Shown here: one piece after another, positions 11,758 through 47,097 of the stretch
Numbering within the stretch: position 1 is the first letter of the stretch
Layout: each line of letters begins with the position of its first letter
NCBI GenBank assembly: GCA_035500135.1
Contig: DATJXL010000089.1
Coordinates: 7,645-71,644 of the forward strand
Length of the DNA: 64,000 nt
Direction: 5' to 3'
From: Kofleriaceae bacterium
Lineage (GTDB): Bacteria; Myxococcota_A; Polyangia; Haliangiales; Haliangiaceae
Notes under the pieces: generated by a model
Seen by the model: the letters and a program-made list of their open reading frames with translations, nothing else
Told to the model about the DNA's origin: nothing
The model's database searches: none
Made by a program: the position numbers and the translations under genes

Positions 11758-11835
11758 CGCGATCCAGCGTAACACTACCCAGTTGCGACGCGGGCATAGC
11801 CCGAGCCTTACTCCCGCGGTAGATTGGCCGCGGCC

Positions 11836-14243: not shown

Positions 14244-14507
14244 GAGCCGCGCGCGGCTGCACGATTCGCGCCCCCGGGCGCACGCGCGCGGCACGGAGAT
14301 CCGTTGCCTCCCGAAATGCACTTCGTGCGCAGGCCGCTCGCCGTGCGCGGACGACACGCGAGGAATGTCGAGTCGATACGCTCCCGCAGCACCATGCGCA
14401 GGGTTGGGACAGCCGTCATTTTGCGCAGATCTTCAACGAGATTTTGCTTGGCTGCGACCGAAGCGTCGCCATACGGTCCCGGCGTCCATTAGTTGGGAGA
14501 CCAAGCG

Positions 14508-23549: not shown

Positions 23550-24482
23550 ATGAGCAAGGTCGTCGCGTGTCTACTGGCGCTCGCGGTCGCGTGCGGAAAA
23601 TCGGGCTCGGACTCGGGCTCGAGCTCGGGCTCGAAGGACCGGCCGAAGGTCGCGGTCTCGATCTTCCCGCTGTACGACCTGGTACGGCGGGTCGCGGGAG
23701 ATCGCGTCGAGGTGCTGCTCGTGCTGCCGCCCGGCCGCAGCGAGCACGAATACGATCCGACGCCGAAGGACATCGCGCGGCTCGACGGCGCGAAGCTCGC
23801 GATCGCGATCGGCCTCGACATGGACACGTGGGTCGAGACGATCGTGAAGGGCGCGGGCGGGGCGCCGATCTTTCACGTCGGCGACAAGATCAAGACCATG
23901 CCGATCGCGGTCGAGCCGATCGGCGAGGCCGAGGCGCACGCCGGCGAGGCCCCGGATTCCGACGACAAGCCGGGCGCGCCCGATCCGCACGTGTGGCTCG
24001 ATCCCGAGCGGATGAAGTTGGTCGTCGACTCGATCGCCGAGCAACTCACGGCGATCGATCCCGAGGGCAAGACCGCGTTCGCGGCCGCCGCGGACAAGCT
24101 GAAGGGTGAGCTGCAGACGTTGGACGCGAAGATCGCCGCGCGCGCGAAGACGTGGTCGAAGACCACGATCGTGACGTTCCACGGCTCGATGTCGTACTAC
24201 GCGAAGCACTACGGGCTGCGCATCGCGGCCGTCGTCGAGCCGCTCGCCGGCAAGGAGCCGACCGCGGCGTACATCGCCGAGGTGCTCGGCGCGATCAAGG
24301 CCGGCCACGCGGCGGCGCTGTTCTCCGAGCCGCAGTTCGACAAGGCTCCGGCCGAGACGATCGCCAAGGAGGCCGGCGTGCCGCTCGGCGAGCTCGATCC
24401 CGTCGGCGGCGTGACCGGGCGCGACAGCTACGAGGCCCTCCTGCTGTGGAACACCGACCAGCTCGACAAGGTGCTCAAGTAG
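23550..24482 (+). CDS. znuA: Metal (Zn/Mn) ABC transporter substrate-binding lipoprotein, ZnuA/TroA family
   Basis: LLALAVACG lipobox. VSIFPLYDLV, EHEYDPTPKD, DPHVWLDP. Acidic/His loop EAEAHAGEAPDSDDKPG. Confidence 0.82.
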   Translation: MSKVVACLLALAVACGKSGSDSGSSSGSKDRPKVAVSIFPLYDLVRRVAGDRVEVLLVLPPGRSEHEYDPTPKDIARLDGAKLAIAIGLDMDTWVETIVKGAGGAPIFHVGDKIKTMPIAVEPIGEAEAHAGEAPDSDDKPGAPDPHVWLDPERMKLVVDSIAEQLTAIDPEGKTAFAAAADKLKGELQTLDAKIAARAKTWSKTTIVTFHGSMSYYAKHYGLRIAAVVEPLAGKEPTAAYIAEVLGAIKAGHAAALFSEPQFDKAPAETIAKEAGVPLGELDPVGGVTGRDSYEALLLWNTDQLDKVLK

Positions 24483-25316
24483 ATGACGACGACGGTCCCG
24501 CCGCCGATGAAGTCGCTCGAGCGCCGCAACAGCGCGCGCGCGCTCGGCCAGACGCGGCCGGATCCGGCGATGGCGCACGTGCTCGACGTCGAGCACGTGA
24601 AGATCGCGATCCGCGGCAGGACGATCATCGATGGCATGTCGTTCTGGGTGCCGAAGGGCGAGTTCGTCTGCTTGTGCGGGCCGAACGGCGCCGGCAAGTC
24701 GACCCTGCTCAAGGCGATCATGGGGCTCGTGCCGATCACGAGCGGCCGCATCACGATCCGCGGCGAAGAGGTCGCGGCCGGCCATCGCCACGTCGGCTAC
24801 GTGCCGCAGCGCAAGGGCTTCGACCGCGACTTTCCGGCGCGCGCGGTCGATCTCATCGTCGCCGCGCTCCGCGGCAAGTGGCCGGCGCACATCCGCGACG
24901 ACGAGCGCGAGCACGCGCGCCGCGCGCTCGCGAAGATCGGCGGCGAGCGCCTGCTCGACAAGCCGCTCGCCGGGCTGTCGGGCGGCGAGACCCAGCGCGT
25001 GTTCCTCGCACGCGCGCTGATCACCGAGCCGTCGCTGCTGATCTTCGACGAGCCGACCGCGGGCGTCGACGCGCGTGGCCGCGCCGAGCTGATCGAGCTG
25101 ATGATGCAGATCTCGCGCTCCGACGAGCTCGCCGCGATCCTCGTCACCCACAACCTCGCCGCGGTCGCGGCCACCGCCGAGCGCATCGTGTACATCGAGG
25201 CCGGCCAGCTCCTGTGCTGGGGCCTGCCGGAGGAGCTGCTCGGCCAGCGATCGCTGACCGCGCTCGCCGCGTTCCAGGCGACCGATCATCACGCCGCGGC
25301 GGCCGACGAAGAGTGA
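24483..25316 (+). CDS. znuC: Metal ABC transporter ATP-binding protein
   Basis: Walker A GPNGAGKST, signature LSGGETQR, Walker B LLIFDEP. Confidence 0.9.
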   Translation: MTTTVPPPMKSLERRNSARALGQTRPDPAMAHVLDVEHVKIAIRGRTIIDGMSFWVPKGEFVCLCGPNGAGKSTLLKAIMGLVPITSGRITIRGEEVAAGHRHVGYVPQRKGFDRDFPARAVDLIVAALRGKWPAHIRDDEREHARRALAKIGGERLLDKPLAGLSGGETQRVFLARALITEPSLLIFDEPTAGVDARGRAELIELMMQISRSDELAAILVTHNLAAVAATAERIVYIEAGQLLCWGLPEELLGQRSLTALAAFQATDHHAAAADEE

Positions 25317-25323
25317 CCGCCGG

Positions 25324-26154
25324 ATGATCCACTTCTTCGCCGACCCGCTGCACTTCGCGTTCATGCAGCGCGCGCTCGTCGCCGGCCTCGCGGTGGCGGC
25401 GGTGTGCGCGGTGATCGGCGTGTTCATCGTGCAGCGCGGGCTCGCGTTTCTCGGCGACGGGCTCGCGCACGCCGCGTTCGGCGGCATCGCGATCGGCTTG
25501 TTCCTCGGCGCGTCGGTCGAGCACGCGGTGTGGATCGCGATCCCGTTCACCGCGGCGGTCGCGCTCGGCATCGGGTTCGTGCTGCGGCGCACGTCGCTGC
25601 GCGGCGACGTCGCGACCGGCGTGTTCTTCTCGTTCAGCTTCGCGCTCGGCGTGTTGTTCCTCGGGCTCAGGACCGCGAGCGATCGCCAGATCGACGTCGA
25701 GAGCCTCTTGTTCGGCAACATGCTCGCGGTCGCGCCGGAGGTCCTCGAGGTCGTCGTCGCGGTTGCCGTGCTCGCGCTCGTGCTCACGGTCGCGCTGTGG
25801 TCGCGACTCGCGTACGCGATCTTCGATCCCGAGCTCGCCGCGATCTCCGGCGTGCCGGTCGCCGTGCTCGAGTACCTCTTGCTCGCCGAGACCGCGGTCG
25901 TCGTCGTCGTCGCGGTCAAGACGGTCGGGGTCGTGCTGGTGTCGAGCTTCGTCGTGATCCCGGCGGCGACCGCGCGCCTGGTCGGCTCGACGCTCGCGCG
26001 CGCCACCGCGCTCGCGCTCGCGATCGGAATGCTCGGCGCCGCGGTGGGGCTGTTCGTCAGCTTCCACCTCGACACGCCGACCGCCGCGACGATCATCCTC
26101 ATCCATTGCGCGGGCTTCGCCACCGCGCTGGCGTGGTCACGCCTGCGCCGATAG
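25324..26154 (+). CDS. znuB: Metal ABC transporter permease (ABC-3 family)
   Basis: 276 aa, 8-9 hydrophobic helices. FMQRALVAGLAVA... is typical of ZnuB/MntB. Confidence 0.9.
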   Translation: MIHFFADPLHFAFMQRALVAGLAVAAVCAVIGVFIVQRGLAFLGDGLAHAAFGGIAIGLFLGASVEHAVWIAIPFTAAVALGIGFVLRRTSLRGDVATGVFFSFSFALGVLFLGLRTASDRQIDVESLLFGNMLAVAPEVLEVVVAVAVLALVLTVALWSRLAYAIFDPELAAISGVPVAVLEYLLLAETAVVVVVAVKTVGVVLVSSFVVIPAATARLVGSTLARATALALAIGMLGAAVGLFVSFHLDTPTAATIILIHCAGFATALAWSRLRR

Positions 26155-26217
26155 CACGCGCTGTCTCACCCGCTTTTCGTGCGACATCGCGCGCGAGCTT
26201 CCTCGTACAATGGGACC

Positions 26218-27012
26218 ATGCGCTACCTCGCGATCGTGCTCGTCTTGATCGGCTGTGGTACGGACTCGATGCCCGGCGGCGGCGGCGGGGGCGGCGGTGG
26301 TGGCTCCGCGACCATGGTCTCCGGCACGATCTCCACCGCCACGACGTGGTCGGGTACGATCGAGGTCACGGGCGCGGTGACGATCGCGGCCGGTGTCACG
26401 GTCACGGTCGATGCCGGCGCGATGATCGAGACCGGCTCCGCGATCACGATCGACGGCACCCTCGACATCGAAGGTACGAGCGGCTCGACGGTCTCGGTCG
26501 GTCCCGCGGGCACGACGGCGCACTGGCCCGGCTTCACGGTCGCGAGCGGCGGCACGCTGACCGCGCACTACATGGACGAGGTCGGTGGCGCCGTGAACAT
26601 GGCCGACGGCAGCACGGTGACGATCTACGATTCGCACCTATCGCAAGCGAGTCACGATCTCGTCGTGGTCGAGGGTGGCACGCTCGACATCGAGTACTCG
26701 TCGATCGGCGTCGAGTCCGGCCAGACCGACACCACGCACTGCGACACGCACTTCGACGGCGCGACCGCGATCACGATCACGCACACGAACATCAGCTCGT
26801 CGGCATACGGCTCGATGTTCTACGCCGGCTCGAGCGTCGACTGGACCTACGACAACTGGTTCGACAACGCCACCGACGTCGCGACCTCGCCCGGCGTCAC
26901 CGGCACGTTCAGCTACGGCTGGTTCCAGAAGGGCGACGCGCCGAGCGGCAGCGGGATCGTCGCGCAGAACATGTCGAGCACGCGCGTCACCGACGCCGGG
27001 CCGCGGCCCTGA
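26218..27012 (+). CDS. Lipoprotein with poly-Gly linker and parallel beta-helix-like Gly/Thr-rich repeats
   Basis: MRYLAIVLVLIGCG lipobox, then a Gly run. Repeated GxTVTVxxGA / GGTLxxxxS segments. ATG at 26218 inside track ORF 26179..27012. Confidence 0.65.
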   Translation: MRYLAIVLVLIGCGTDSMPGGGGGGGGGGSATMVSGTISTATTWSGTIEVTGAVTIAAGVTVTVDAGAMIETGSAITIDGTLDIEGTSGSTVSVGPAGTTAHWPGFTVASGGTLTAHYMDEVGGAVNMADGSTVTIYDSHLSQASHDLVVVEGGTLDIEYSSIGVESGQTDTTHCDTHFDGATAITITHTNISSSAYGSMFYAGSSVDWTYDNWFDNATDVATSPGVTGTFSYGWFQKGDAPSGSGIVAQNMSSTRVTDAGPRP

Positions 27013-27110
27013 GGCTTCCGCTACCCACCGTCTGAGGCACATTGCCTCGGGCCGCTTCGGCCACCGAAGCTTGTACGCGGGGCGTGGTGGTGCTTCCATG
27101 GGTCGAACAC

Positions 27111-27980
27111 ATGGGTTGCTTGTGCTGTGGTGCATCGGCGGAGGTGGGAACGCTGTGTCGGCCGTGCGCGCACGACGTCGCGCCGTGCGACGGCTTGATT
27201 CCGGATCACGTGCGCTCGAACGTCGACTCGACGGAAGCGGCGGCGTGGATGGTCGACGGCTTCGGCACCGCACACGCGATCGGGCCCAAGACGGCGATCG
27301 GCCGCAACCACGAGGGCGAGCTCGTGGTGCTCGCGAGCTCGGTGTCGCGCGAGCACGCCGAGCTGCGCAAGACCGACGCCGGCTGGCACGTGCGCGACCT
27401 CGGCAGCCGCAACGGCACGTTCGTCGATGGCGTTCGCGCGCAAGGCCGGCAGCAGCTCGGCGCGCGCTCGCTCGTGAAGGTCGGCGACGTCGGGCTGTGG
27501 TTCCTCGCCGAGGTCATGGACGAGCCGCTGCCGCCGCCGTCGATGGCGACCGCGAGCGCCGGATCGGGCCTCGTGCGCTACCACCTGTCGGCGGGCTCGC
27601 TCGAGCTGTGCCTGGTCGGCGCGAACGACGGCGCGGCGGGCGGCGCCCTGCTGTCGCGTGCGGCCGGCACCGAGACGTGGAGCGAGCGCGGGCTCGCGCC
27701 GCTCGAGTACCAGCTGTTGCGCGCGCTGTGCGCGCGCGCGACCGAGGAGGCCGAATCGCCGTCGGCAGTGCGGGGCTGCGTGCAGACCCGCCAGCTCGCA
27801 CGCGACCTGCCGTTCCAGTCGAAGTACGCGAACGAGGAGAACGTGCGCCAGGTCGTGCGGCGCCTGCGCGCCGTCCTCGGCGAGCTCGCGGTCGACGGCA
27901 TCCTCGCGGTCGCGCCCGGCCGCGGCTATTACCTGTCGTGCAAGGTCTCGGCGCTCACCGGCGCTTCGACAGATCGATGA
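27111..27980 (+). CDS. Zn-ribbon - FHA - OmpR/PhoB-type winged-helix regulator
   Basis: MGCLCCGASAEVGTLCRPC. FHA: AIGRNHEGELVVLASSVSREHAEL...WHVRDLGSRNGTFVDG. C-terminal wHTH: LAPLEYQLLRALC...VRQVVRRLRAVL...GRGYYL. Confidence 0.8.
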   Translation: MGCLCCGASAEVGTLCRPCAHDVAPCDGLIPDHVRSNVDSTEAAAWMVDGFGTAHAIGPKTAIGRNHEGELVVLASSVSREHAELRKTDAGWHVRDLGSRNGTFVDGVRAQGRQQLGARSLVKVGDVGLWFLAEVMDEPLPPPSMATASAGSGLVRYHLSAGSLELCLVGANDGAAGGALLSRAAGTETWSERGLAPLEYQLLRALCARATEEAESPSAVRGCVQTRQLARDLPFQSKYANEENVRQVVRRLRAVLGELAVDGILAVAPGRGYYLSCKVSALTGASTDR

Positions 27981-28166: not shown

Positions 28167-29786
28167 TCACGCGTTCCTCACGCCTCGCGCGCCGCCCTCG
28201 GCTTGGTGACGGGCCGCGACCGCGTCACGCTCGCCGAGATCGACGGTGATCGTCATCGTCGGCGTGCTCGCGGCAACGACCTCCGCCGCGGCCTGGACGT
28301 GGATCTCGCGCCACCAGCGGCGCGCCTCGGCGTCGCTCCAGTCCTTCGCGGCAGGCACCGCGCGCAGCGCGGCCGCGAGGTCCGCCGCGGTGCGGTAGCG
28401 GTCCTCCGGGGTCTTGGCGAGGCACTTCATCACGATCGCCTCGAGCTCCGGCTGCACGTACGTCGCGATCACCTTCGACGGCGGCACCGGCGCCGACGTC
28501 ATCGTCTTCATGCAGATGTCGATCGCGGTCTTGCCCTGGAACACCTGCGTGCCGGTCATCAAGTAGTAGCCGACCGCGCCGATGCCGTAGAGATCGGCCG
28601 CGCGGCCGATCTTCGTCGGATCGACGATGACCTCGGGCGCGATGTAGCCCGGCGTGCCGAGCACGACCTGGGTCGAGACGTCGGTGTTCGCGGTCAGCTC
28701 CTTCGCGAGCCCGTAGTCGAGCACCTTCGCGACGTCGGGCATCGCGCCGCGCTCGCACAGGATGATGTTCGCCGGCTTGACGTCGCGGTGGATGATGCCG
28801 CGGTCGTGCGCCTCCTGCAGCGCACCGCACACCTGCTCGAGCACCTTCGCGATGCGCGCGCTCGGTTGCGGCCCGTAGCGGCGCACCAGCCGCGACAGGT
28901 CGATGCCGTCGAGGTACTCCATCGCGTAATAGAACACGCCGTCGCTCGACCGCCCGTAGTCGAACACCGCGACCGTGTTCGGGTGCGTGAGCTCGCTCAT
29001 CTCCTGGACCTCGCGCTCGAAGCGCTCGAGATCCTCGGGCCGATCCGACGGCAAGAGCTTGACCGCGGTCGGCCGGCGCAGCATCAGGTGCTTCGCGAGG
29101 TAGACCTCGCCCATGCCGCCCGCGCCGATCTTGCGGACGAGCGTGTACTGGCCGACCTGCTGCGCGGCGCTGACCTGCTTGCGCAGGCCGTAGATCGTCT
29201 GCGAGCCGGCGCTCGACAGCCAGATCGGCATGCTCGCGAGCAGTAAGAACGACAGGAAAAACGCGCTGGGCGGCAGGCTCGGGTCTTGCCAATGCTTGTA
29301 TGCGAGTGCCGCCGCCGAGATCATCATCGGCACGAACGTCGAGAAGCTCGTGACGGCCGTGCGCAGCCCGCTGCTGGGTACGATCAGCGCGCGCGCGTAG
29401 ACCGTGAACGCGTAGTAGAGCAGCGACGCGTACGAGGCCGGGGTCAGGTCGTGCTGCACGAACGCGCTCGCGCCGAACGCGGTGCCGATGCCGACCGAGT
29501 AGATGAGGTCGGCGCGATGGAGCGCCCGGAGCGACAGCTTCGTGCGCACGAGCAGCACCCACACGAACGCCATCGTGCCGAGCCCGACGCCCGAGCCCGC
29601 GAACACCTCGCGGTAGTACTTCGGCGCGACCTCGTCCGGATACACGGTGTACAAGCCCCACAGAAATCCGATCAGCGCGGCGAGGCTCCAGAACATCAGC
29701 TTGAACAGGTAGGCGAGCCGCTCCTGCAGATACTCGCGGGCCTGCTCGTCCGCGCTCTCGCGCGGCTTCTTGCGCGCGATCTTCAC
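28167..29786 (-). CDS. Ser/Thr kinase with N-terminal six-helix membrane domain (RD type)
   Basis: GTG at 29786 overlaps the upstream kinase stop (GTGA). ~230 aa with 6 hydrophobic helices, then IGAGGMGEVYLA, TAVKLL, IIHRDVKPANIIL, DYGLA, GTPGYIAPE. Confidence 0.85.
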   Translation of the reverse strand: MKIARKKPRESADEQAREYLQERLAYLFKLMFWSLAALIGFLWGLYTVYPDEVAPKYYREVFAGSGVGLGTMAFVWVLLVRTKLSLRALHRADLIYSVGIGTAFGASAFVQHDLTPASYASLLYYAFTVYARALIVPSSGLRTAVTSFSTFVPMMISAAALAYKHWQDPSLPPSAFFLSFLLLASMPIWLSSAGSQTIYGLRKQVSAAQQVGQYTLVRKIGAGGMGEVYLAKHLMLRRPTAVKLLPSDRPEDLERFEREVQEMSELTHPNTVAVFDYGRSSDGVFYYAMEYLDGIDLSRLVRRYGPQPSARIAKVLEQVCGALQEAHDRGIIHRDVKPANIILCERGAMPDVAKVLDYGLAKELTANTDVSTQVVLGTPGYIAPEVIVDPTKIGRAADLYGIGAVGYYLMTGTQVFQGKTAIDICMKTMTSAPVPPSKVIATYVQPELEAIVMKCLAKTPEDRYRTAADLAAALRAVPAAKDWSDAEARRWWREIHVQAAAEVVAASTPTMTITVDLGERDAVAARHQAEGGARGVRNA

Positions 29787-31375
29787 GCCGCTTCCTCGCC
29801 GCGCTGGCCGATGTCGACCGTGATCGTGGAGTCGGCGTGCTCGGGCGCGTCGAGCAGCTCGACCGGCTTGGCGTGCTCGGCCCACCATTCGCGCGCGCGC
29901 TCGATCTCCCAGCGCGGCACGGCGGCGAGCGCGGCCGCGAGCTCGCTGGCGTCGCCGAAGCGATCGGCCGGCTTCTTGGCGAGGCAGCGCAGCACGATCG
30001 CCTCGAGCGTCGGATCGACCGCGACGTGCGTGGACGGCGGCACCGGTGTCGCCTCGACGTGCTGGCGGCACACGTCGATCGAGCTCTCGCCTGCGAACAC
30101 CGGCTTGCCGGTCAGCATGAAGTAGCCGACCGCGCCGAGCGAGTAGAGATCGACCGCCGGACCGACGCGATCGGGATCGGTCATGCGCTCGGGCGCGACG
30201 TAATCCGGCGTGCCGAACACGATCTGCGACGACGCTCCGGTGCCGGCCGTGAAGTCCTTGACGAGGCCGTAATCGAGCACCTTCGCGACGTCGGGCTGGC
30301 CGCCGCGCTGGCACAGGATGATGTTCGCGGGCTTGATGTCCTGGTGGACGATGCCGCGCCCGTGCGCTTCGGCGAGCGCGCCGCACACCTGCTCGAGGAT
30401 CCACGCGACGCGCCCGCTCGGCTGCACGCCGTGCACGCGCACGAGCTGGTCGAGCGTCCAGCCGTCGCCGAGATACTCCATCGCGTAGTAGAAGACGCCG
30501 TTGTCGCTGCGGCCGTAGTCGAACACGACGACCGTGTTCGGGTGCGTGAGCTCGCTCATGTGCTGCACCTCGCGCTCGAAGCGCTCGAGGTGCGCGCCGA
30601 CGCGATCCGGCATCAGCATCTTCACCGCGGTGTGGCGGCGCAGCATCAGGTGGCGCGCGATCCACACCTCGCCCATGCCGCCGGTGCCGATGCGGCGCAC
30701 GAGCGTGTACTGGCCGAGCTGCTGCGCCTCGCGGACCTGGCGGTTAAGATCGTAGATGATGTTCGAGCCCGCCGCCGACAGCAGGATCGCGACGCCGGCT
30801 AGCACGAGGAACCCGACGACGAATGCCGGCCCGGGCAGGGCCTGCCGCGACGACAGCGCGACCGCGGCGACCGCGAGCGGCGCGAATGCGAGCCCACCGG
30901 CGAGCGCGGTGCGGCGGCCCGTGCTCGGCACGATCAAGCCGCGCGTGAGCACCGCGAAGCACTGGTAGCACAGGCAGCAATAGGCAGCCGGGCGAAAGTT
31001 GTACGCGATCAGCGCCGACCCCGCGAACACGCAGCCGGTGCCGAACGCGTAGAACAGATCGATGCCGTACAGCGACGCGAAGCTGAGGTTCGGCCGGCGC
31101 ACGAGCAACAGGCGCCAGATCGACGCCATGATCGCGAGCCCGACCGCCGACAGCGCGTAGACATACTTCTGATACGTCGGCTCGATCGACGGAAAGCTCG
31201 CGTAGAGCACGAACAGGAACGCGATCAACGCCACGAACGTCCAGAACATCAGCTTGAACAGGACGGTCAGGCGCGCCTGCAAGTACGACCGCGACTCCGC
31301 CTTGCCGGAGGTCGACCACGGAACGCGCAGGTTCCGCCGAGATCGTGCCGCATCTGCCACCACTTCCACGTTCAT
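29783..31375 (-). CDS. Ser/Thr kinase paralogue with N-terminal six-helix membrane domain (non-RD: HQD)
   Basis: Same architecture and collinear similarity to the downstream gene. IGTGGMGEVWIA, TAVKML, IVHQDIKPANIIL, DYGLV, GTPDYVAPE. Confidence 0.85.
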   Translation of the reverse strand: MNVEVVADAARSRRNLRVPWSTSGKAESRSYLQARLTVLFKLMFWTFVALIAFLFVLYASFPSIEPTYQKYVYALSAVGLAIMASIWRLLLVRRPNLSFASLYGIDLFYAFGTGCVFAGSALIAYNFRPAAYCCLCYQCFAVLTRGLIVPSTGRRTALAGGLAFAPLAVAAVALSSRQALPGPAFVVGFLVLAGVAILLSAAGSNIIYDLNRQVREAQQLGQYTLVRRIGTGGMGEVWIARHLMLRRHTAVKMLMPDRVGAHLERFEREVQHMSELTHPNTVVVFDYGRSDNGVFYYAMEYLGDGWTLDQLVRVHGVQPSGRVAWILEQVCGALAEAHGRGIVHQDIKPANIILCQRGGQPDVAKVLDYGLVKDFTAGTGASSQIVFGTPDYVAPERMTDPDRVGPAVDLYSLGAVGYFMLTGKPVFAGESSIDVCRQHVEATPVPPSTHVAVDPTLEAIVLRCLAKKPADRFGDASELAAALAAVPRWEIERAREWWAEHAKPVELLDAPEHADSTITVDIGQRGEEAA

Positions 31376-31486: not shown

Positions 31487-32419
31487 ATGCAGTGGCGACT
31501 CGTCTCCGGTCTGCTCGTCGCGACCACGTCGGTCGCGTCGGCCGACGACCCGTCGCCCGATGCCACGCCGACGACACCGACGACACCGGTGCGGCGCGAG
31601 GACGCCACGTTCGGTCAGATCTTCGGCGGGCCGTTCCAGTCGTCGCGGCTGTTCGCGATGCCGACCGCCGACACGGTCGGCCCGTACATGCTCGCGCTAT
31701 CGGGCGAGGGCAGCCTGCTCGAGCAGCCGGGCTTGCTCACGTCGGCCGGCGTGGTCGCGATCGGGTTCGGCGATCTCGCGCAGCTCGAGTACCGCCACAC
31801 CGAAGCGATCAGCGTGACCGGCGTCAACGCGCCGGTGCCCGCGGTCGGCGCGCAGTTCCGGCTGCCGATCCCCGAGCAGCCGAACGTGCCGGCGATCGGG
31901 ATCGCATATCGCCAGGGTTTGCCGCGTGACGAGCAGGTCGGCATGGCGACGGTCGAGGAGTCGGTCACCGACATCTACATGGTCGCGCGCGAGCGGCTGT
32001 CGGTCGCGCCGTGGCTGACGCTCCACGCCGGCCTGCGCTACTCGCCGTCGCACGTGACGGTGACCGGCCTGCCGGCCAAGAGCGCCGACCTCTGGCTGCC
32101 GGCCGCCGGTTTCGAGCTCGCGGTCAACCGCGAGGCGCGCGTCGTCGGCGAGACCGAGCTCGTCCCGCAGTTTCATTTCGACCCGGGCGACACCGCGCCG
32201 CGCATCACGACGGGCGCCGAAGCCCGGCTCGGCCTGCGCTGGGCGCTGTTTCACGCGGTGACGCTCGACGCCAGCTTTGGTTACCAGCTCGACGAAGCGA
32301 TGGGCTCCATCGGGGGCCCGCGCGACGTCGTGCAGGAGTGGGACATCCGGCTCGGTGCCGAGGTGTTCGTGCCCTGGGGTGCGCTGGCCTGCCGCGCCGC
32401 CGGGGTGTTCTGCGACTAA
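31487..32419 (+). CDS. Secreted protein, paralogue 1 of an unrecognised family
   Basis: Signal peptide MQWRLVSGLLVATTSVASA. Shares blocks with the next two genes (MPTADTVGP.., IGFGDLAQLEY, AQFRLP..PAIGIAYRQG, IYMVARERL...LHAG). Confidence 0.7.
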   Translation: MQWRLVSGLLVATTSVASADDPSPDATPTTPTTPVRREDATFGQIFGGPFQSSRLFAMPTADTVGPYMLALSGEGSLLEQPGLLTSAGVVAIGFGDLAQLEYRHTEAISVTGVNAPVPAVGAQFRLPIPEQPNVPAIGIAYRQGLPRDEQVGMATVEESVTDIYMVARERLSVAPWLTLHAGLRYSPSHVTVTGLPAKSADLWLPAAGFELAVNREARVVGETELVPQFHFDPGDTAPRITTGAEARLGLRWALFHAVTLDASFGYQLDEAMGSIGGPRDVVQEWDIRLGAEVFVPWGALACRAAGVFCD

Positions 32420-32444: not shown

Positions 32445-33695
32445 ATGAAGAAGCTATGGATCGTCGCTCTCGTCGCCGGCATCGCCGCGACCGCGGACGC
32501 ACAGCCGAGCGACCCGTACAACCACGATGCGGGTGGCAACGGCAGCGCGCAAGCGCCGCCGCAGGAACCGCAACCACCGCCGCCACCGCAGCCAGGGCCG
32601 GAGCAACCACCGCCGCAGCAGCACACCGTGCGCGTGCTCGGACGCACGCGCATGTACGAGCTGCCGAACGAGGCGAGCGCGGTGATGACCTACGTCGAGC
32701 CGAACGAGCAGCTCGTGCCGGTGCGCACCGAAGGCGAGTGGACGTACGTCGAGAACTGGCGCGGCCAGGCCGGCTGGATCAAGACGTCGCGGGTCGCGGC
32801 GGCACAGGCGCCGGCCTCGCCCGACGACGCCGCGGCCGAGGAGGCGAAGCAGGAGCCACCGAAGAAGCCGGAAAAGCCGCGGCCACCCGATCCGCCGGTC
32901 GATCTGCCGATGCTGATCGCGGCGCCGACCGGCTGGCTGTTGCCGGCGGCGGTCCTGTACTCGCGCACCGGCCTCGACACCGGCGGCGGGTTCACGTCGG
33001 ATAACCGCGTCGGCCTCGGCGACGTCGCCGAGTTCGGCGTGAAGACGCTCGATCAAGTTCGTTCGTGCTCGGGCCCGACGACGCTCTCGGACTGCGCGAA
33101 CTCGGCCAGCGCGATCCAGCCGTATTTCACCGCGATCTTCCGCATGGGTGTCGGCGAGGACCGCTTGTTCGACGGCCAGCCCGGCCTCGTGCTCGGCTTC
33201 GAGAAGTCGTTCGAGCGCGACGACGGCGACAACGCGACGCGCATCGCCGAGCTCACGCTGGTCGCGAGCAAGAAGCTCGGCGATCGTGCGTCGATTCACG
33301 TCGGCGCCGCGTTCTGGGATGCCGAGTTCACCAACTCGACGTCGGACACCACGGTCGCGCTGCACAACCTCGACGGCGGCTTCGCGAACCAGATCCGTCC
33401 GTTTGCCGGCCTCGCCGCCAGCCCGATCGCGAAGTCCGAGCTCCTCGTCGACCTCAGCTGGGCGCCGCAGTTCTGCTACGCCTGCAACACGTCGGGGCCG
33501 ACCGACAACCAGCAGATCCGGTTGCGGCCCGAGCTCGCGTGGGGCGTGCGCTACAAGGTCGCCGACTGGATGCTGCTCGAATCCGGCGTGCGCGTGCCCG
33601 ACATCGGAAACGCGAACCTGCTCGACGCGCAGATCTACGGCGCGGTGACATTCGTGACGTGGGGCCTCCGCCACGCGGTGGACAGCGTGAAGTGA
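32445..33695 (+). CDS. Secreted protein, paralogue 2: Pro-rich linker + SH3b-like domain + family domain
   Basis: GAGGAG SD. MKKLWIVALVAGIAATADA. PPQEPQPPPPPQPGPEQPPPQQ. SH3b-like RVLGRTRMYELPNEASAVMTYVEPNEQLVPVRTEGEWTYVENWRGQAGWI. Family blocks APTGWLLPAA, VGLGDVAEFGV, FRMGVGEDRLFDGQPGLVLGFEKS. Confidence 0.75.
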   Translation: MKKLWIVALVAGIAATADAQPSDPYNHDAGGNGSAQAPPQEPQPPPPPQPGPEQPPPQQHTVRVLGRTRMYELPNEASAVMTYVEPNEQLVPVRTEGEWTYVENWRGQAGWIKTSRVAAAQAPASPDDAAAEEAKQEPPKKPEKPRPPDPPVDLPMLIAAPTGWLLPAAVLYSRTGLDTGGGFTSDNRVGLGDVAEFGVKTLDQVRSCSGPTTLSDCANSASAIQPYFTAIFRMGVGEDRLFDGQPGLVLGFEKSFERDDGDNATRIAELTLVASKKLGDRASIHVGAAFWDAEFTNSTSDTTVALHNLDGGFANQIRPFAGLAASPIAKSELLVDLSWAPQFCYACNTSGPTDNQQIRLRPELAWGVRYKVADWMLLESGVRVPDIGNANLLDAQIYGAVTFVTWGLRHAVDSVK

Positions 33696-33696
33696 C

Positions 33697-34437
33697 GTGC
33701 GTCGATTCGCGATCATATGGATCGCGTTGGCCGCGCGGGCGGCTGCCGCCGACCCTCCAACCGTCGACCACGTGGTCACGGCGCCGACCGCGTGGCTGCC
33801 GGCCGCCGGCACGGCGATCGGCAGCGCGTCGCTCGACCAGCACGGCACATCGTCGATCGTCGTCGGCTATGGCCTCGGCGGGATCGCCGAGGTCGAGCTC
33901 GGCGGCGACGGCGACGTCGACCAGTGCGACAGCGTGGCGTGCAAGTCGCGGCTCTACCAGGCGCGCGCCACGTTCCGCGTCGGCGCGCGCCAGGACGAGT
34001 GGTTCGACGGCCAGCCGGCGCTCGTGTTCGGCGTGCAGGAGTCGTTGCCCGGCACGCGTCGCGTCGGCGAGGCGTACGTGGTGGCGAGCCGCACGCTCGG
34101 CACCGGATTCGGCTCGTGGCGCCTGCACGCCGGCGCGATCGCGCTCGACGCGACCGCGGACGATGGCTCGCGGCTCGGCTTCACCGTGCGGCCGATCGGC
34201 GCGATCGAGCTCGTGCCCGCGCAGTATCCGAAGACCACGATGATGCTCGACGTGACGTGGTTGCCCGAGCTGCACGCGCCCGGCTCGATGACCGCGCCGG
34301 TGCAGGCGGCGTGGCTCGGTGGCTTCGGCGTGCGCTATCAGGCCTTGTCGTGGGGATCGATCGAGCTCGCGATCCGCGCGAGCTCGGTCGAGGACCGCGG
34401 AGTGATGGTGCGCATCAACGGCGTGCTCGGGCAGTAG
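33697..34437 (+). CDS. Secreted protein, paralogue 3
   Basis: GTG start 1 nt after the previous stop. MRRFAIIWIALAARAAAA. Blocks APTAWLPAAG, YGLGGIAEVEL, FRVGARQDEWFDGQPALVFGVQES, YVVASRTLG. Confidence 0.7.
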   Translation: MRRFAIIWIALAARAAAADPPTVDHVVTAPTAWLPAAGTAIGSASLDQHGTSSIVVGYGLGGIAEVELGGDGDVDQCDSVACKSRLYQARATFRVGARQDEWFDGQPALVFGVQESLPGTRRVGEAYVVASRTLGTGFGSWRLHAGAIALDATADDGSRLGFTVRPIGAIELVPAQYPKTTMMLDVTWLPELHAPGSMTAPVQAAWLGGFGVRYQALSWGSIELAIRASSVEDRGVMVRINGVLGQ

Positions 34438-34457
34438 CTGGGGTAAGCTGCCGCTCG

Positions 34458-34805
34458 ATGCATGGGGGCATCGAGTGGTTGATCGACGCGCATGGCTGCG
34501 CGCCGGCCCGGCTGCGCGATCGCGACGCCGTGGTCGCGCTGCTCGAGCGCATCGTCGCCGACATGCAGCTGCACGTCGTGTCGCGCGCGGTGCACGTGTT
34601 CGGCGGCGAGGGCGGCGTGACCGCGCTGTACTTGCTCGCCGAGTCGCACCTGTCGATCCACACGTTTCCGGAAGCCGGCACCGCGACGCTCGACGCCTAC
34701 TGCTGCGCGCCGCGCGAGCCCGCCGCGTGGCGCGCGCTGTGCGGCGACGCGCTCGGGGCGCGCGACGTGATCGTGCGCGAGCTCGCGCGCGGAGTGATCG
34801 CGTGA
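34458..34805 (+). CDS. speH: S-adenosylmethionine decarboxylase proenzyme (small pyruvoyl SpeH/SpeD type)
   Basis: 115 aa. Self-processing motif LLAESHLSIHTFPE. Real 3' end of shadow ORF 33717..34805. Confidence 0.85.
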   Translation: MHGGIEWLIDAHGCAPARLRDRDAVVALLERIVADMQLHVVSRAVHVFGGEGGVTALYLLAESHLSIHTFPEAGTATLDAYCCAPREPAAWRALCGDALGARDVIVRELARGVIA

Positions 34806-37096
34806 AGACGAGCTGCCCGAACTGCGGCGCCGAGGTCGAGTTTCGCTACGACGACTCGTTCGTGCGCGTGTGCGACCACTGCCGGTGCGCCGTGCTGCGC
34901 ACCGATCGCGGCGTCGACTCGCTCGGCCAGGTCGCGGATCTGGTCCCGATGGACTCGCCGCTCGCGCTCTTCGCGGACGGCCATCTCGGTAGCGCCGGCT
35001 TCCTGCTCGTCGGCATGGCGCAGATCCGCCACGGCTCGGGCGGGCTGTGGCAGGAGTGGTACGCGAAGCTGGACGGCGGCAAGTGGGGCTGGCTCGCCGA
35101 GGCGCAGGGCCGCTACTACCTGACGTTCGAGGAGCCGGCCGCGGCGCTGCCGCCGTTCGAGTCGCTCGCCCCGGGCCAGGCGATCGAGCTGCCGGTGCAC
35201 GGCGTGTCGCGTCGGTTCACGGTCTCCGAGCACGCGGGGGCGGCGTACGTCGCGGCGACCGGCGAGCTGCCGTACAAGCTCGTGCCCGACGGCAGCTTCC
35301 GGTTCGTCGATCTCGACGACGGCGCCGGCACGTTCGCGACGATCGACTACGGCGACACCGGCGACGCACCGGCGCTGTACGTCGGCCAGCAGGTCACGCT
35401 CGACGAGCTCGGCATCCGCGGCGGCGAGCACGGCCCGTCGCGCGACGCGAAGATCGCGAGCCAGCGCCTCGCGTGCCCGAACTGCAACGCGCCGATCGAG
35501 CTACACGCACCGGGCGACGCGCAACGCTACGCGTGCACGTCGTGCAATCACCTGATCGCGCTCGACGGCAACCTGCGCGTGCTCGGCGGGCTCCCGCACA
35601 AGGCGTCGCCGTCGATCCCGCTCGGCAGCGTCGGCAAGCTGCCCGAAGGCGAGCTGACCGTGATCGGCTTCGTGCAGCGCAGCGCGCACGTCGACGGCGC
35701 GTGGTACCCGTTCGAGGAGTATCTCTTGTACGCGCCCGCCGTCGGCTTTCGCTGGCTCGTGTGCTCGGACGGCCACTGGAGCTACGTCCAGCCGGTCGCG
35801 GTCGGTGCGGTCGAGGCCGGCGTCACGGGCTGCCGCTACGACGGCGTGAAGTTCACGCGCTTCACGGGTGCGCCGCTGCGCGTCGATCAGGTCCTCGGCG
35901 AGTTCTACTGGCAGGTCGAGGTCGGCGAGACGGTCGACAGCGAGGATTTCATCGCGCCGCCCGCGATGCTGTCGTCGGAGACGACGCGGAGCGAGACGAC
36001 GTGGTCGCTCGGCACGTACATGACGATCCACGACGTCCAGCACGCGTTCGGCGACAAGAACCTGCCGATCGGACCGACGATCGGCGTCGCGCCGAACCAG
36101 GTCGATCGCAGCGAGCGCGCGGCGCGGTGGATGGCCGGCGGCGTGGGCGTGATGCTCGCGATCGGGATCGTCGCCGCGACGGTCGCGCCCGATCACCTGG
36201 TCTACGAGCACGCGATGGAAGTGCACGCTGGCTCGGCCGCGCCGGTCGCGCAGACCCAGCCGATCGCGGATGTCGGCACGCCTGGAAGTGGCGACGCGTG
36301 CGCGCAGTATCGCGTCGCCGTGCACAGCCTGCTGAGCTGCGAGGAGATCCCGAAGGAGTCGCGTGACTCGCTGGTGTCGGCGTTTCCGCTCGATTCGAGC
36401 GACGCTGTGGTCTGCCAGGCAGGCGTGGATTCGGTGAAGCAGATCCTCGCGCGCACCAAGTGCGAGCTCGGCAGCGCCAGTGGCAGCGGCAGCAGCACCG
36501 TCGCCGGCAGCGGAAGCGGCAGCAGTAGCGGCAGCGGCAGCGGCGAGCTGGAGGCTCCCAACGTGTTCTTCTCCGATCCGTTCCAGCTCGACTCCGGCCA
36601 CAACGTCGAGGTCGAGCTGAGCTCGCCGGTCGACAACGACTGGGTCTACGCCGCGGCCGATCTCGTCAACCAGGACACGGGCGATGTCGTCGAGGTCGAG
36701 AGCGACCTCGAGTACTACCACGGCATCGACGACGGCGAGGCGTGGAGCGAGGGCTCGCACCGGTCCACCACCGTGGTCGGCCCGCCGACCGGCGGCACGT
36801 ACATCCTGCGCGTCGAGGCGCAGCACGGCGGACACGGCGAGACCAGCCTCGCGATGGCGATCCATCAGGGCGTGTTTCGCGGGACCTACCTGATCCTGTT
36901 CCTCGGCGTGCTCGGCATCCCATGGCTGTTGCTCGGGCTGCACGCGTGGTCGATCGAGAAGCGGCGCTGGGAGAACAGCACCCGCGGCAAGCCGCCGGTC
37001 ACGTCGTTCACGATCGTGGTCGCGATCGCCGGTGGTATCGCGTTCGTGATCTGGGGCCTGTTCAAGCTGGTCGCGCGGAGCAGCAGCAATGACTGA
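34802..37096 (+). CDS. 764-aa membrane protein: 2 x (Zn-ribbon + DUF4178-like domain), TM, Cys-containing and beta-rich extracytoplasmic region, two C-terminal TM helices
   Basis: GTG at 34802 overlaps the speH stop (GTGA). CPNCGAEVEF..CDHCRC and CPNCNAPIEL..CTSCNHLI. LWQEWYAKLDGGKWGWLAEAQG and AWYPFEEYLLYAPAVGFRWLV resemble DUF4178. TM at AARWMAGGVGVMLAIGIVAATVA. GS-rich linker. Confidence 0.8.
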   Translation: MKTSCPNCGAEVEFRYDDSFVRVCDHCRCAVLRTDRGVDSLGQVADLVPMDSPLALFADGHLGSAGFLLVGMAQIRHGSGGLWQEWYAKLDGGKWGWLAEAQGRYYLTFEEPAAALPPFESLAPGQAIELPVHGVSRRFTVSEHAGAAYVAATGELPYKLVPDGSFRFVDLDDGAGTFATIDYGDTGDAPALYVGQQVTLDELGIRGGEHGPSRDAKIASQRLACPNCNAPIELHAPGDAQRYACTSCNHLIALDGNLRVLGGLPHKASPSIPLGSVGKLPEGELTVIGFVQRSAHVDGAWYPFEEYLLYAPAVGFRWLVCSDGHWSYVQPVAVGAVEAGVTGCRYDGVKFTRFTGAPLRVDQVLGEFYWQVEVGETVDSEDFIAPPAMLSSETTRSETTWSLGTYMTIHDVQHAFGDKNLPIGPTIGVAPNQVDRSERAARWMAGGVGVMLAIGIVAATVAPDHLVYEHAMEVHAGSAAPVAQTQPIADVGTPGSGDACAQYRVAVHSLLSCEEIPKESRDSLVSAFPLDSSDAVVCQAGVDSVKQILARTKCELGSASGSGSSTVAGSGSGSSSGSGSGELEAPNVFFSDPFQLDSGHNVEVELSSPVDNDWVYAAADLVNQDTGDVVEVESDLEYYHGIDDGEAWSEGSHRSTTVVGPPTGGTYILRVEAQHGGHGETSLAMAIHQGVFRGTYLILFLGVLGIPWLLLGLHAWSIEKRRWENSTRGKPPVTSFTIVVAIAGGIAFVIWGLFKLVARSSSND

Positions 37097-37331: not shown

Positions 37332-37553
37332 ATGAAGCTCGACAACATGGGAGACGCGGCCGTCTCGTCGGCGGTGTTCGCCGGCATCGGTCTCGCGGTG
37401 TTCGGAATCGCGTTCTGGCTCATGACAAAGCTCGCGCCATTCTCGGTCAAGAAAGAGATCGAGGAAGATCAGAACACGGCGCTCGCGATCATCATGGCCG
37501 GGGTGATCATCGGTGTCAGCCTCATCATCTCCGCAGCCATCTCCGGGCAGTAG
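37332..37553 (+). CDS. DUF350 (YjfL-like) small membrane protein
   Basis: 73 aa, two helices. KKEIEEDQNTALAIIMAGVIIGVSLII matches the DUF350 pattern. The ATG abuts the previous TAG. Confidence 0.8.
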   Translation: MKLDNMGDAAVSSAVFAGIGLAVFGIAFWLMTKLAPFSVKKEIEEDQNTALAIIMAGVIIGVSLIISAAISGQ

Positions 37554-37581
37554 CTCGGGGCCGCCGATCGCGGCGGGCGCG

Positions 37582-39072
37582 TTGTACGCCAACGTGTTCG
37601 TCGTCGCGATCTGCGGCCTCGTCTACGAGCTGCTCGCCGGCACGCTGGGCAGCTACTTGCTCGGCGATTCGGTCACGCAGTTCTCGCTCGTGATCGGGCT
37701 CTACCTGTCGGCGATGGGCGCCGGTGCGTGGCTGTCGCGCAAGCTCGACGGCGATCTCGCGCGCCGGTTCGTCGAGATCGAGCTCGCGGTCGCGATCGTC
37801 GGCGGGCTGTCCGCGCCGGTGTTGTTCCTGTCGTTCGGCACGGTCGTGCACTTCCAGATCGTGCTGCTCGGGTTCGTCGCCGCGATCGGCGTGCTCGTCG
37901 GGCTCGAGCTGCCGATCCTGATGCGCCTGCTCGAAGGTCAGATGGAGCTCAAGGACCTGGTGTCGCGCGTGCTCACGTTCGATTACATCGGCGCGCTCGC
38001 GGCGGCGCTGATGTTCCCGCTCGTGCTCGTGCCGAAGCTCGGCCTCGTCCGCAGCTCGCTCGTCGCCGGCGTCGCGAACGCGGCGGTCGCGCTGTGGGGC
38101 ACGTGGCTGCTCGGCTCGCGGCTCGGCCCGCGCGCGTTCGGCGTGCGCGTGCGCGCGATCGTCGTGCTGGTCGCGATGCTCGTCGCGCTCGCGTTCGCGG
38201 ATCGGTTCACGACCTGGGCCGAGGACGAGATGTACGCCGATCCGATCGTGTTCACCGAGACCACGCCGTATCAGCGCATCGTCGTCACGCGCGGCCGCGC
38301 CGGCTTCCAGCTGTTCCTGAATGGAAATCTCCAGTTCTCGTCGGCCGACGAGTACCGCTATCACGAGGCGCTCGTGCACCCGGCGATCAGCGCGGCCGGC
38401 GGCGCGCCGAAGCGCGTCTTGATCCTCGGCGGCGGCGACGGGCTCGCGCTGCGCGAGGTGCTCGCGCACGCGTCGGTCGAGCAGGTGACGCTCGTCGATC
38501 TCGATCCGGCGATGACGTCGCTGTCGAAGAAGTTCCCGGCGCTCGCCGAGCTCAACCATCACTCGTTCGACGACCCGCGCGTCACCGTGATCAACGACGA
38601 CGCGATGGTCTGGCTCGACGACCATCCCGGGCAATGGGATGTCGCGATCGTCGACTTCCCCGATCCGAACACGTTCCAGCTCGGCAAGCTGTACACGCGC
38701 CTGTTCTATCGCCGCCTGCTCGCGCGCATCGCACCGGGTGGCGCGGTCAGCGTGCAGGCGACGTCGCCGCTGTTCGCCCGGCGCTCGTACTGGTGCATCG
38801 TCGAGACGATGCGCGCCGCCGGGTTCGCGGTGCGGCCGTATCAGGTCACCGTGCCGTCGTTCGGCGTGTGGGGCTACGCGCTCGCGCGCCGCGAGCCGTT
38901 CGATCCGCCGCGCGCGGTGCCGGCGCTGCCGCTGCGCTACCTGAACGAGGCCGCGCTCGCCGCGATGTTCGAGATGCCCGCCGACACGACCGAGGTGCCG
39001 GTCGAGATCAACCAGCTCGATAACCAAGCGCTGGTGCGGTACTACGAGCGCGAGTGGCGGCGATGGGAATAA
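37582..39072 (+). CDS. speE: Polyamine aminopropyltransferase (spermidine-synthase-like) fused behind a ~7-helix membrane domain
   Basis: Catalytic part has VLILGGGDGLALREV, VTLVDLDP and VAIVDFPDP. Track start 37513 (GTG) lies inside DUF350, where this frame has poor GC3. I prefer the TTG at 37582; the start is uncertain. Confidence 0.85.
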   Translation: MYANVFVVAICGLVYELLAGTLGSYLLGDSVTQFSLVIGLYLSAMGAGAWLSRKLDGDLARRFVEIELAVAIVGGLSAPVLFLSFGTVVHFQIVLLGFVAAIGVLVGLELPILMRLLEGQMELKDLVSRVLTFDYIGALAAALMFPLVLVPKLGLVRSSLVAGVANAAVALWGTWLLGSRLGPRAFGVRVRAIVVLVAMLVALAFADRFTTWAEDEMYADPIVFTETTPYQRIVVTRGRAGFQLFLNGNLQFSSADEYRYHEALVHPAISAAGGAPKRVLILGGGDGLALREVLAHASVEQVTLVDLDPAMTSLSKKFPALAELNHHSFDDPRVTVINDDAMVWLDDHPGQWDVAIVDFPDPNTFQLGKLYTRLFYRRLLARIAPGGAVSVQATSPLFARRSYWCIVETMRAAGFAVRPYQVTVPSFGVWGYALARREPFDPPRAVPALPLRYLNEAALAAMFEMPADTTEVPVEINQLDNQALVRYYEREWRRWE

Positions 39073-46696: not shown

Positions 46697-46745
46697 GCGT
46701 CCGGGATATTAGAGGCGACGCCACCCGCCGCGCAAGCCGGAACGC

Positions 46746-46904
46746 TCAGCGCTGCGCGAGCTGGACGTGGTCCGCGTGTGCCGCGATCGAGATCGACTTC
46801 GCCTCGATCGCGCCGGCGAACAGGAGGACCGCGGCGAACGCGAGGTCGCGGATCCGGTTGATGCGCTGGCGGGTGGCGATGCTGTGGAGCCGGTTGTTCG
46901 TCAT
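46746..46904 (-). CDS. Candidate 52-aa membrane protein
   Basis: MTNNRLHSIATRQRINRIRDLAFAAVLLFAGAIEAKSISIAAHADHVQLAQR. 51 of 52 codons end in G/C. ATG at 46904. It is the 3' end of shadow ORF 46746..47186. Confidence 0.45.
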   Translation of the reverse strand: MTNNRLHSIATRQRINRIRDLAFAAVLLFAGAIEAKSISIAAHADHVQLAQR

Positions 46905-47097
46905 GCCGGAACCTAGTTCAACGGCGATGCCAGCCTGTGAAAATGCATGCTTAACGATCACGAAGTGCACGTCTGCTGGCTTGGGACTCAGCTCGCCATC
47001 TCGTGCGTTTGCTTGTGGGGGTCTTAATGGGAGTCGAGACCGTCCTGGACCACTCGGGTCTGCAATGGCGCGACGCCGCGTCGTGTCGATCGTTAGG

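Follow-up and report, generated by a model that had tools for sequence, protein, structure and literature searches.

Bacterial serine/threonine kinases (STKs) of the Hanks type are almost always drawn with the kinase domain first, followed by one transmembrane (TM) helix and a sensor outside the cell. Those of the PknB type are RD (Arg-Asp) kinases, activated by phosphorylation of the activation loop and by dimerisation through the N-lobe, and FHA domains are readers of phosphothreonine. EmbR, an FHA/winged-helix substrate of the kinase PknH, is encoded alongside it (PMC7785237). PknH docks on EmbR at the FHA domain and phosphorylates it. M. africanum, M. bovis and M. canettii carry two pknH paralogues, in which the kinases are highly similar, the sensors differ and the kinase domains have recombined (PMC7785237). 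Here we analysed a 64,000-nucleotide stretch of the genome of a Kofleriaceae bacterium (contig DATJXL010000089.1, positions 7,645 to 71,644; G+C ~70%), referred to below as the window. It holds two adjacent STK genes, A and B, whose products carry six membrane helices in front of the kinase domain, together with a convergent neighbouring gene for a protein with a zinc-ribbon-like N-terminus, an FHA domain and a winged helix. PknH-EmbR is the closest known analogue, because there too membrane Hanks STKs are encoded beside an FHA and OmpR-type winged-helix factor, and the pattern of like kinases and unlike sensors in PknH1 and PknH2 is seen in A and B as well. The adjacent FHA and winged-helix gene is thus shared with the PknH-EmbR type, whereas the architectures of EmbR and PknH are not found here. 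PknH is arranged as kinase, TM helix and extracellular sensor, whereas A and B have the six-helix domain ahead of the kinase and lack an extracytoplasmic domain. EmbR consists of winged helix, BTAD and FHA domains, whereas the neighbour in the window runs zinc ribbon, FHA, winged helix and has no BTAD match. Furthermore, tbd2 lies between pknH1 and pknH2, which lack translational coupling, whereas A and B are directly coupled. On balance, we lean towards the view that A and B make up a conserved operon of two genes for membrane-embedded sensor STKs, which act as a hetero-oligomer with the FHA regulator as output. Such a system does not overturn current concepts; the kind of signalling is known, and the membrane sensor domain on which it is built is uncharacterised.

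The two neighbouring open reading frames (ORFs) of 530 and 539 aa that the original prediction had described on the minus strand were found where it had placed them (Table 1). They had been called collinear, and every shared segment quoted for them was located; BLASTP aligned the two proteins over 519 residues at 54% identity (E = 0), and the paralogy is full-length. The overlap of the stop codon of A with the GTG of B, also predicted, was borne out by the codon positions: the two share GTGA at 29783-29786, with the TGA of A at 29785-29783 and the GTG of B at 29786-29784. A Shine-Dalgarno-like GAGGAA (29792-29797, minus strand) lies 5 nt 5' of this GTG. The open frame of B extends further upstream, and its start was placed at GTG 29786 (539 aa) because of the N-terminal alignment with A and with homologues. 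Gene B was also matched on a 75-kb metagenome contig in ENA, ERZ27256576 (k141_2128868).

Table 1. Positions in the window of the two kinase genes, their domains and motifs, and the convergent neighbouring gene.
Feature	Position	Strand	Description
Gene A (upstream, 'UP' paralogue)	29783-31375	minus	ATG start, 530 aa: six TM helices, helical linker, non-RD Hanks kinase, conserved C-terminal tail
A six-helix membrane domain	30767-31309	minus	aa 23-203; hydropathy, AlphaFold2, invariant columns
A juxtamembrane helical linker	30710-30766	minus	aa 204-222; TM6 continues straight into kinase strand beta1
A PknB-like kinase domain	29954-30709	minus	aa 223-474; Pfam Pkinase, Foldseek
A catalytic-loop HQD	30338-30346	minus	CAC CAG GAC; Gln in place of HRD Arg
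Gene B (downstream, 'DOWN' paralogue)	28167-29786	minus	GTG start, 539 aa: six TM helices, linker, RD kinase, tail
B six-TM domain and linker	within 28167-29786	minus	six-TM domain aa ~11-194; linker aa 195-213
B kinase domain		minus	aa 214-465; Pfam Pkinase; canonical RD
B catalytic-loop HRD	28782-28790	minus	GIIHRDVKPAN
C-terminal tail motif	29801-29911 (A); 28227-28334 (B)	minus	A aa 489-525; B aa 485-520
Convergent neighbour	27111-27980	plus	289 aa; CxxC...CxxC zinc-ribbon-like N-terminus, FHA, C-terminal OmpR/PhoB-type winged helix

One genome per bacterial species was scanned with the A/B alignment. At least 586 genome stretches fitted the scan patterns and were verified as relatives, and the locus counts given here rest on the best 80 loci. 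Head-to-tail pairs on the same strand were present in seven other loci (L001, L002, L003, L005, L006, L009 and L013), and in all of these except L005 the stop and start codons overlapped as ATGA or GTGA. The same 4-nt overlap was found on three more metagenome contigs (P0264/P0184, P0238 and P0159), where the downstream fragments were of the B type. At least 10 other loci, from Kofleriaceae/Haliangiales, share the pair, its gene order and its 4-nt overlap. A and B are thus true paralogues in a translationally coupled tandem, as predicted, and the tandem is conserved. Co-occurrence, order and coupled translation are all conserved, as would be looked for in a heteromeric pair. In a neighbour-joining tree the UP copies formed one clade and the DOWN copies another, and in a tree of the membrane domain only, the two clades had the same internal branching order, as mirror images. 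The gene was therefore duplicated before these genomes diverged, and the order and coupling of the two genes have been kept since.

The two halves of the proteins have diverged to different extents. Within a locus the paralogues were 42% identical in the membrane domain and 69% identical in the kinase, compared with 68% for the kinase between orthologues. The split between UP and DOWN copies dissolved in a kinase-only tree, where A and B of the window were sisters. At identical residues, A and B used the same codon in mostly 33-58% of cases (82% in one segment) along the membrane domain and in mostly 74-100% (57% in one segment) along the kinase. These results are suggestive of gene conversion, though they do not amount to a formal test of it: the kinase halves may have been partly homogenised and the sensor halves kept distinct. 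Membrane domains as the most diverged part are also what would be expected if A and B were independent homodimeric receptors with different membrane-domain specificities, sharing an operon and a regulator with no mutual dependence. An independent-sensor arrangement has been suggested for PknH1 and PknH2 of mycobacteria, in which near-identical kinase domains are joined to differing sensors (PMC7785237). We regard this as possible for A and B, at clearly less than an even chance, and the strict gene order and 4-nt overlap over at least 10 loci argue instead for stoichiometric co-production.

The original prediction placed six hydrophobic helices N-terminal to the Hanks domain, and hydropathy, the family profile and an AlphaFold2 (AF2) model agree on this. 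The hydrophobic segments of A lay at residues 38-56, 74-92, 105-123, 131-149, 156-174 and 184-202, and the same six persisted in the family-averaged hydropathy profile. The AF2 model of A, built on a 117-sequence alignment (overall confidence score, pLDDT, of 87), had helices at 23-60, 69-92, 99-123, 129-148, 153-173 and 182-219, with a pLDDT of 95-98. The predicted layout of an N-terminal part of ~230 aa and a short tail held, with the lengths corrected to ~220 aa, linker included, and ~55-75 aa, respectively. Lys and Arg residues numbered ~10.7 per sequence, family-wide, in the N-terminus, the TM2-3 and TM4-5 loops and the linker taken together, and 2.6 in the other loops. Because this distribution fits the positive-inside rule, the topology is read as N-in/C-in. 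The periplasmic loops are only ~13, 5 and 8 residues long, as anticipated by the claim that there is no sizeable periplasmic loop, and sensing within or at the bilayer is therefore a reasonable reading. Among 117-123 sequences, D106 in TM3, R145 in TM4 and P150-S151 in the cytoplasmic turn after TM4 were invariant; judged by this conservation, they mark a buried polar site. In the AF2 model a single unbroken helix, 182-219, joins TM6 to the first kinase strand, and the IIYGLR motif and the G-loop lay 24 residues apart in 54 of 55 locus members and in 182 of 186 database members. The fixed length of this predicted linker is typical of a rigid helical transmitter.

Pfam gave nothing above threshold in the first ~210 residues of A or B, the membrane domain of B having a sub-threshold EamA match (E = 0.01, 16.5 bits against a cut-off of 28.2). 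A profile search of the PDB with the membrane domain returned 0 matches at E <= 10, and Foldseek with a model of the membrane domain only found no significant fold match (best E = 0.6). In general design the domain is like that of class III membrane adenylyl cyclases (Rv1625c; mammalian AC1-9), which are also hexahelical with minimal loops and a helical transducer, and whose cytoplasmic catalytic domain works as a dimer. Mammalian adenylyl cyclases are pseudo-heterodimers of two diverged halves, each with six TM helices and a catalytic domain, and one of the two sites is degenerate. The membrane domains of adenylyl cyclases have been shown to act as receptors, with lipids among their ligands (PMC4821796, PMC11606603). 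The catalytic domains of the cyclases are, in contrast, unrelated to those of A and B, there is no sequence similarity and the structural match to AC8 is non-significant, so that the likeness is one of analogy only. The family departs from the usual drawing of a bacterial STK in its eukaryote-like order, with the receptor before the kinase, and in an input that would be wholly intramembrane and is of no known fold.

The kinase half was readily assigned. PF00069 was the sole Pfam domain in either protein, with 133.7 bits in A (E = 1e-38) and 159.5 bits in B against a cut-off of 31.7. Foldseek with the full-length model returned kinases only, the top matches being PknB, PknA and Stk1; the match to M. 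tuberculosis PknB had E = 6e-19, 34-39% identity and a TM-score of 0.8-0.9 (0.86-0.89 when normalised to the target). A and B are therefore like PknB in kinase fold and motifs, as the structural match indicates, whereas PknB and Stk1 have an N-terminal kinase, a single TM helix and PASTA repeats, and A and B have a C-terminal kinase and no PASTA repeats, with A being non-RD. The best NCBIfam model was that of the PknB/Stk1 PASTA kinase (NF033483), with 238 and 260 bits against an equivalog cut-off of 450, over the kinase part only. Reading of the sequence confirmed the prediction that the catalytic loop is HQD in A and HRD in B, with the Lys, D(Y)G and APE motifs retained in both. The loop of A is GIVHQDIKPAN; one transition separates its Gln codon, CAG at 30343-30341, from the Arg codon CGG. 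Both proteins keep the AVK Lys, the alphaC Glu (FEREV), the HxD Asp, the catalytic-loop Lys and Asn, DYG and APE. With Pkinase scores above threshold and these residues in place, A and B are both Hanks-type STKs. B belongs to the RD subclass and A does not, and neither has lost the VAIK Lys, HRD Asp or DFG Asp, as a pseudokinase would have.

The original prediction had proposed an obligate RD/non-RD pair. Such a pairing did not hold up across the family as the defining feature of the module. Among 72 family ORFs (from the 80 loci plus the window), A alone was not HRD, and the 241 database members comprised 212 with HRD and three with HQD, namely A, P0159 and P0171. In each of the seven other genomic pairs both copies were HRD, and the upstream copies had intact motifs; what differs consistently between the paralogues is the membrane domain. 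Since these seven pairs are RD/RD and HQD occurs in three of 241 members, the pair predates the Arg-to-Gln change. On this distribution, the non-RD state is a recent, late specialisation of the upstream partner and not the basis of the pairing. A metagenome contig and a codon one transition away from CGG could also point to an assembly or sequencing error, or to A being an inconsequential decaying duplicate, which we consider very improbable. P0159 (82% identical to A; JGI sample 3300037258) and P0171 (89% identical; JGI) lie on contigs other than that of the window and both read HQD. These two independent metagenome orthologues rule out the sequencing variant that the original prediction had named as a caveat, and the Gln is therefore real and inherited. 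Decay of A is countered by its intact ORF, its third-position G+C content of 0.93 and its highly conserved motifs.

Changes at the catalytic site have gone further in a sister group of A (P0238, P0216 and P0264, with P0016 similar), which has HHG/KPAT, HRD/KPTS and HHD/KPAS together with degenerate Gly-loops. Losses in this clade extend to the catalytic-loop Asn, to Gly-loop glycines and, once, to the catalytic Asp (P0238, HHG). Of the downstream partners of these degenerate copies, P0184 (the partner of P0264) was canonical, and L082/L083 were DOWN-type fragments. The threonine of the activation-loop 'STQ' was Ser in A and Gln in P0159. To judge by these motifs, one UP sublineage no longer has the canonical RD/activation-loop control and in places lacks catalytic residues too; this stepwise loss would make its upstream copy a pseudokinase in the making. 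In A, dependence on an activation-loop phosphothreonine was probably lost along with the HRD Arg. One reading of these results is that A is no longer mainly an enzyme and instead activates the RD kinase B allosterically or serves as its scaffold, the RD/non-RD asymmetry being the functional core in this lineage; HQD is fixed in three orthologues, the phospho-acceptor is relaxed, the sister clade is degenerate and the downstream partners remain canonical. We find this quite unlikely, given that A keeps the Lys, Glu, HxD Asp, Lys, Asn, DYG and APE and is predicted to be active, that non-RD kinases are generally active enzymes, and that the seven HRD upstream copies with intact motifs indicate that the pair evolved and persisted without the asymmetry. 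The same decay bears on the independence of the two sensors. It affects the UP copy only, next to a canonical partner, which would be easier to understand if the UP copy relied on its partner's activity. A hetero-oligomer is favoured here because translation is coupled and because the decay of the upstream copy is asymmetric.

The FHA-winged-helix neighbour, which the original prediction had not mentioned, is the best clue to function. Its ORF opens at 27042, and the ATG given in Table 1 was taken as the actual start because the orthologues and a 289-aa gene call on the ERZ27256576 contig agree on it. The FHA domain was detected at E = 2.5e-14, and in the alignment the canonical phosphothreonine-binding residues GR, SxxH and NG are present. 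The CxxC...CxxC N-terminus is conserved as well. Trans_reg_C was found in 12 of 12 orthologues (best E = 3e-7); the copy in the window fell below the Pfam cut-off (19.2 against 26.2 bits). The profile of the FHA domain matched Rv1747, EmbR (second-best, E = 4e-11), GarA and OdhI in the PDB, all of which are partners of Hanks kinases. The FHA gene was syntenic, convergent and directly after the kinase gene(s) in 17 of the 80 loci, single-kinase loci included, with 47-77% identity. In close relatives the protein was 66-77% identical, a higher conservation than that of the kinases. Because of this conservation and synteny, the FHA-winged-helix protein is the likely output, and A and B probably signal to it as an adjacent phosphothreonine-binding transcription factor. 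The C-terminal tail of the kinases was considered as the docking site for this neighbour. The tail motif, W..(A)..WW ... T.TITVD(L/I)G.R, is kept family-wide, distant Acidobacteriota included, and AF2 rendered its WW part as a confident helix and its TITVD part as a low-confidence strand. FHA docking through T.TITVD (phi-x-phi-D-phi-x-x-R) was not supported, because the motif is kept in distant members that have no FHA neighbour and because its threonines are not invariant.

In the mechanism that we favour, the input would be a compact six-helix bundle with nearly no periplasmic exposure and a buried invariant Asp and Arg in TM3 and TM4. An intramembrane or membrane-proximal stimulus would shift this bundle, and TM6, as a rigid helix of fixed length, would relay the change to the N-lobe of the kinase. 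Translational coupling would lead to A and B being made in fixed proportion, and the two most likely cooperate within the membrane as a hetero-oligomer whose two sensor halves differ. Once phosphorylated, the kinase(s) would recruit and phosphorylate the zinc-ribbon-FHA-winged-helix protein and so change transcription, following the logic of PknH and EmbR.

Several observations weigh against this mechanism. Co-inheritance and coupled translation are equally expected from two independent sensors. A single kinase occupies the same syntenic position in many genomes (L004, L008, L010-L012, L015 and others); a paralogous partner is therefore not intrinsically required by the fold, and homodimers must work, as two independent receptors would have it. 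The FHA gene was not found near the pair loci L003, L006 and L009, and in distant members (Polyangiaceae, Acidobacteriota) no FHA neighbour was found at E < 1e-8. The gene conversion proposed for the kinase halves rests on one codon-identity scan and on neighbour-joining trees that carry no support values. The only structural resemblance of the membrane domain is to that of AC8, with a probability of 0.91, a query-normalised TM-score of 0.50 and E = 0.73, which is not significant. A bolder version of the hetero-oligomer model, fairly unlikely as a whole, would make the six-helix domain a new class of intramembrane receptor for lipids or small hydrophobic ligands, with A and B as an obligate hetero-dimeric receptor kinase analogous to the 6TM+6TM pseudo-heterodimers of membrane adenylyl cyclases, the Asp-Arg pair as its ligand or switch site, and A evolving into a non-RD and eventually pseudokinase allosteric subunit. 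In this version the FHA-winged-helix factor would control three envelope protein genes divergent from A. The tandem pair is a natural setting in which to study the control of a Hanks kinase by a membrane bundle that acts through a rigid helix. It also bears on whether bacterial STKs use hetero-dimeric kinase/pseudokinase-like receptors as eukaryotes do, and, with its regulator, on pathways from STKs to FHA transcription factors outside Actinobacteria.

The best 80 loci were all from metagenome-assembled genomes (MAGs), of Myxococcota (Kofleriaceae, Haliangiales, Polyangiaceae, Labilithrix) and Acidobacteriota (Vicinamibacteria, Thermoanaerobaculia, Terriglobia). A hidden Markov model of the membrane domain detected 70 ORFs in 61 of these loci, with a kinase next in 69 of the 70. 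A word-indexed search had given just eight fragments, as if the N-terminal domain were rare; later searches showed a large family. A profile search yielded 651 clusters (50% identity) at E <= 1e-30. The profile included ~70 kinase positions, so that the 294,989 matches at E <= 1e-3 are uninformative on the membrane domain, and the E <= 1e-30 tier and the listed full-span matches were used. The 150 best listed matches aligned mainly over the membrane-domain part of the profile; those of full length were mostly ~510-590 aa. The family is thus large, with at least several hundred 50%-identity clusters in soil Myxococcota and Acidobacteriota. Its members are named only 'serine/threonine protein kinase' or 'hypothetical' in public databases, and our literature searches did not find a description of the family. 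A kinase family with this six-helix membrane domain appears to be undescribed so far. The layout itself is unusual, not unheard of. The original prediction had called a polytopic membrane domain before the kinase atypical for bacteria, and this agrees with a 2025 atlas of ~300,000 bacterial STKs, in which a TM region lies N-terminal to the kinase in one of 42 families (bioRxiv 10.1101/2025.01.12.632604). That family, CCM1, shares the order with A and B. It is described as Chloroflexota, Cyanobacteria and other phyla, whereas the present family is from Myxococcota and Acidobacteriota, mostly MAGs, the two being compared by description only.

Two kinds of degenerate relative were seen. In L033, 5638-8283 (-) was considered as a kinase-free membrane-domain protein and has no Pfam domains. 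Its ORF ends with TM1-TM4 followed directly by the C-terminal motif IAVDLEGR, TM5-6 and the kinase being absent; it looks like a truncated relic and is probably a family member reduced by an internal deletion. The metagenome relatives P0008, P0017, P0022, P0030 and P0033 lack the catalytic Asp or Lys (HRG, HGD, HGN; K to T), P0008 being the one that reads HRG, and some of the five have a shortened C-lobe. Because these scattered members have lost the Asp or Lys, pseudokinase derivatives arise repeatedly, beyond the subclade of the window.

The genes divergent from A encode three signal-peptide proteins (31487-32419, 32445-33695 and 33697-34437, +), for which Pfam gave no significant domain (a weak SH3_4 match in one) and which are mutually paralogous (E = 1e-17 and 1e-3). 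Homologues of each adjoin the kinase gene(s) in 9-11 related loci. They may be envelope proteins and are candidate targets of the FHA regulator. Beyond them lies a polyamine-type cluster (34449-34805, 34805-37096, 37513-39072 and 39054-40631, +). Its products are an AdoMet decarboxylase (PF02675, E = 3e-25), a membrane protein with DUF4178 and a zinc ribbon, a protein in which a long N-terminal extension precedes a spermidine-synthase domain, and a flavin amine oxidase; L005, L008, L011 and L013 have the DUF4178 gene in synteny as well. On the other side, just before the FHA gene, a secreted protein (26179-27012) has a homologue near the kinase locus in L008 and L013. It is preceded by a metal uptake operon (23550-26154, +) for a ZnuA-type solute-binding protein, an ABC ATPase and an ABC-3 permease, of which the ZnuA and ABC-3 proteins were unmatched in related loci. 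Two further Hanks kinases in the window have an ordinary layout with no six-helix domain: one has an N-terminal kinase with a PAS domain, and the other a kinase with a C-terminal PEGA domain (10510-11775, -, and 46549-48900, +). The genome is STK-rich, which is expected for Myxococcota. The window also encodes a TPR-CHAT protein (58125-60950, +), an Lhr-type large helicase (52253-56536, +) and a type III polyketide (chalcone/stilbene-like) synthase (13149-14357, -).

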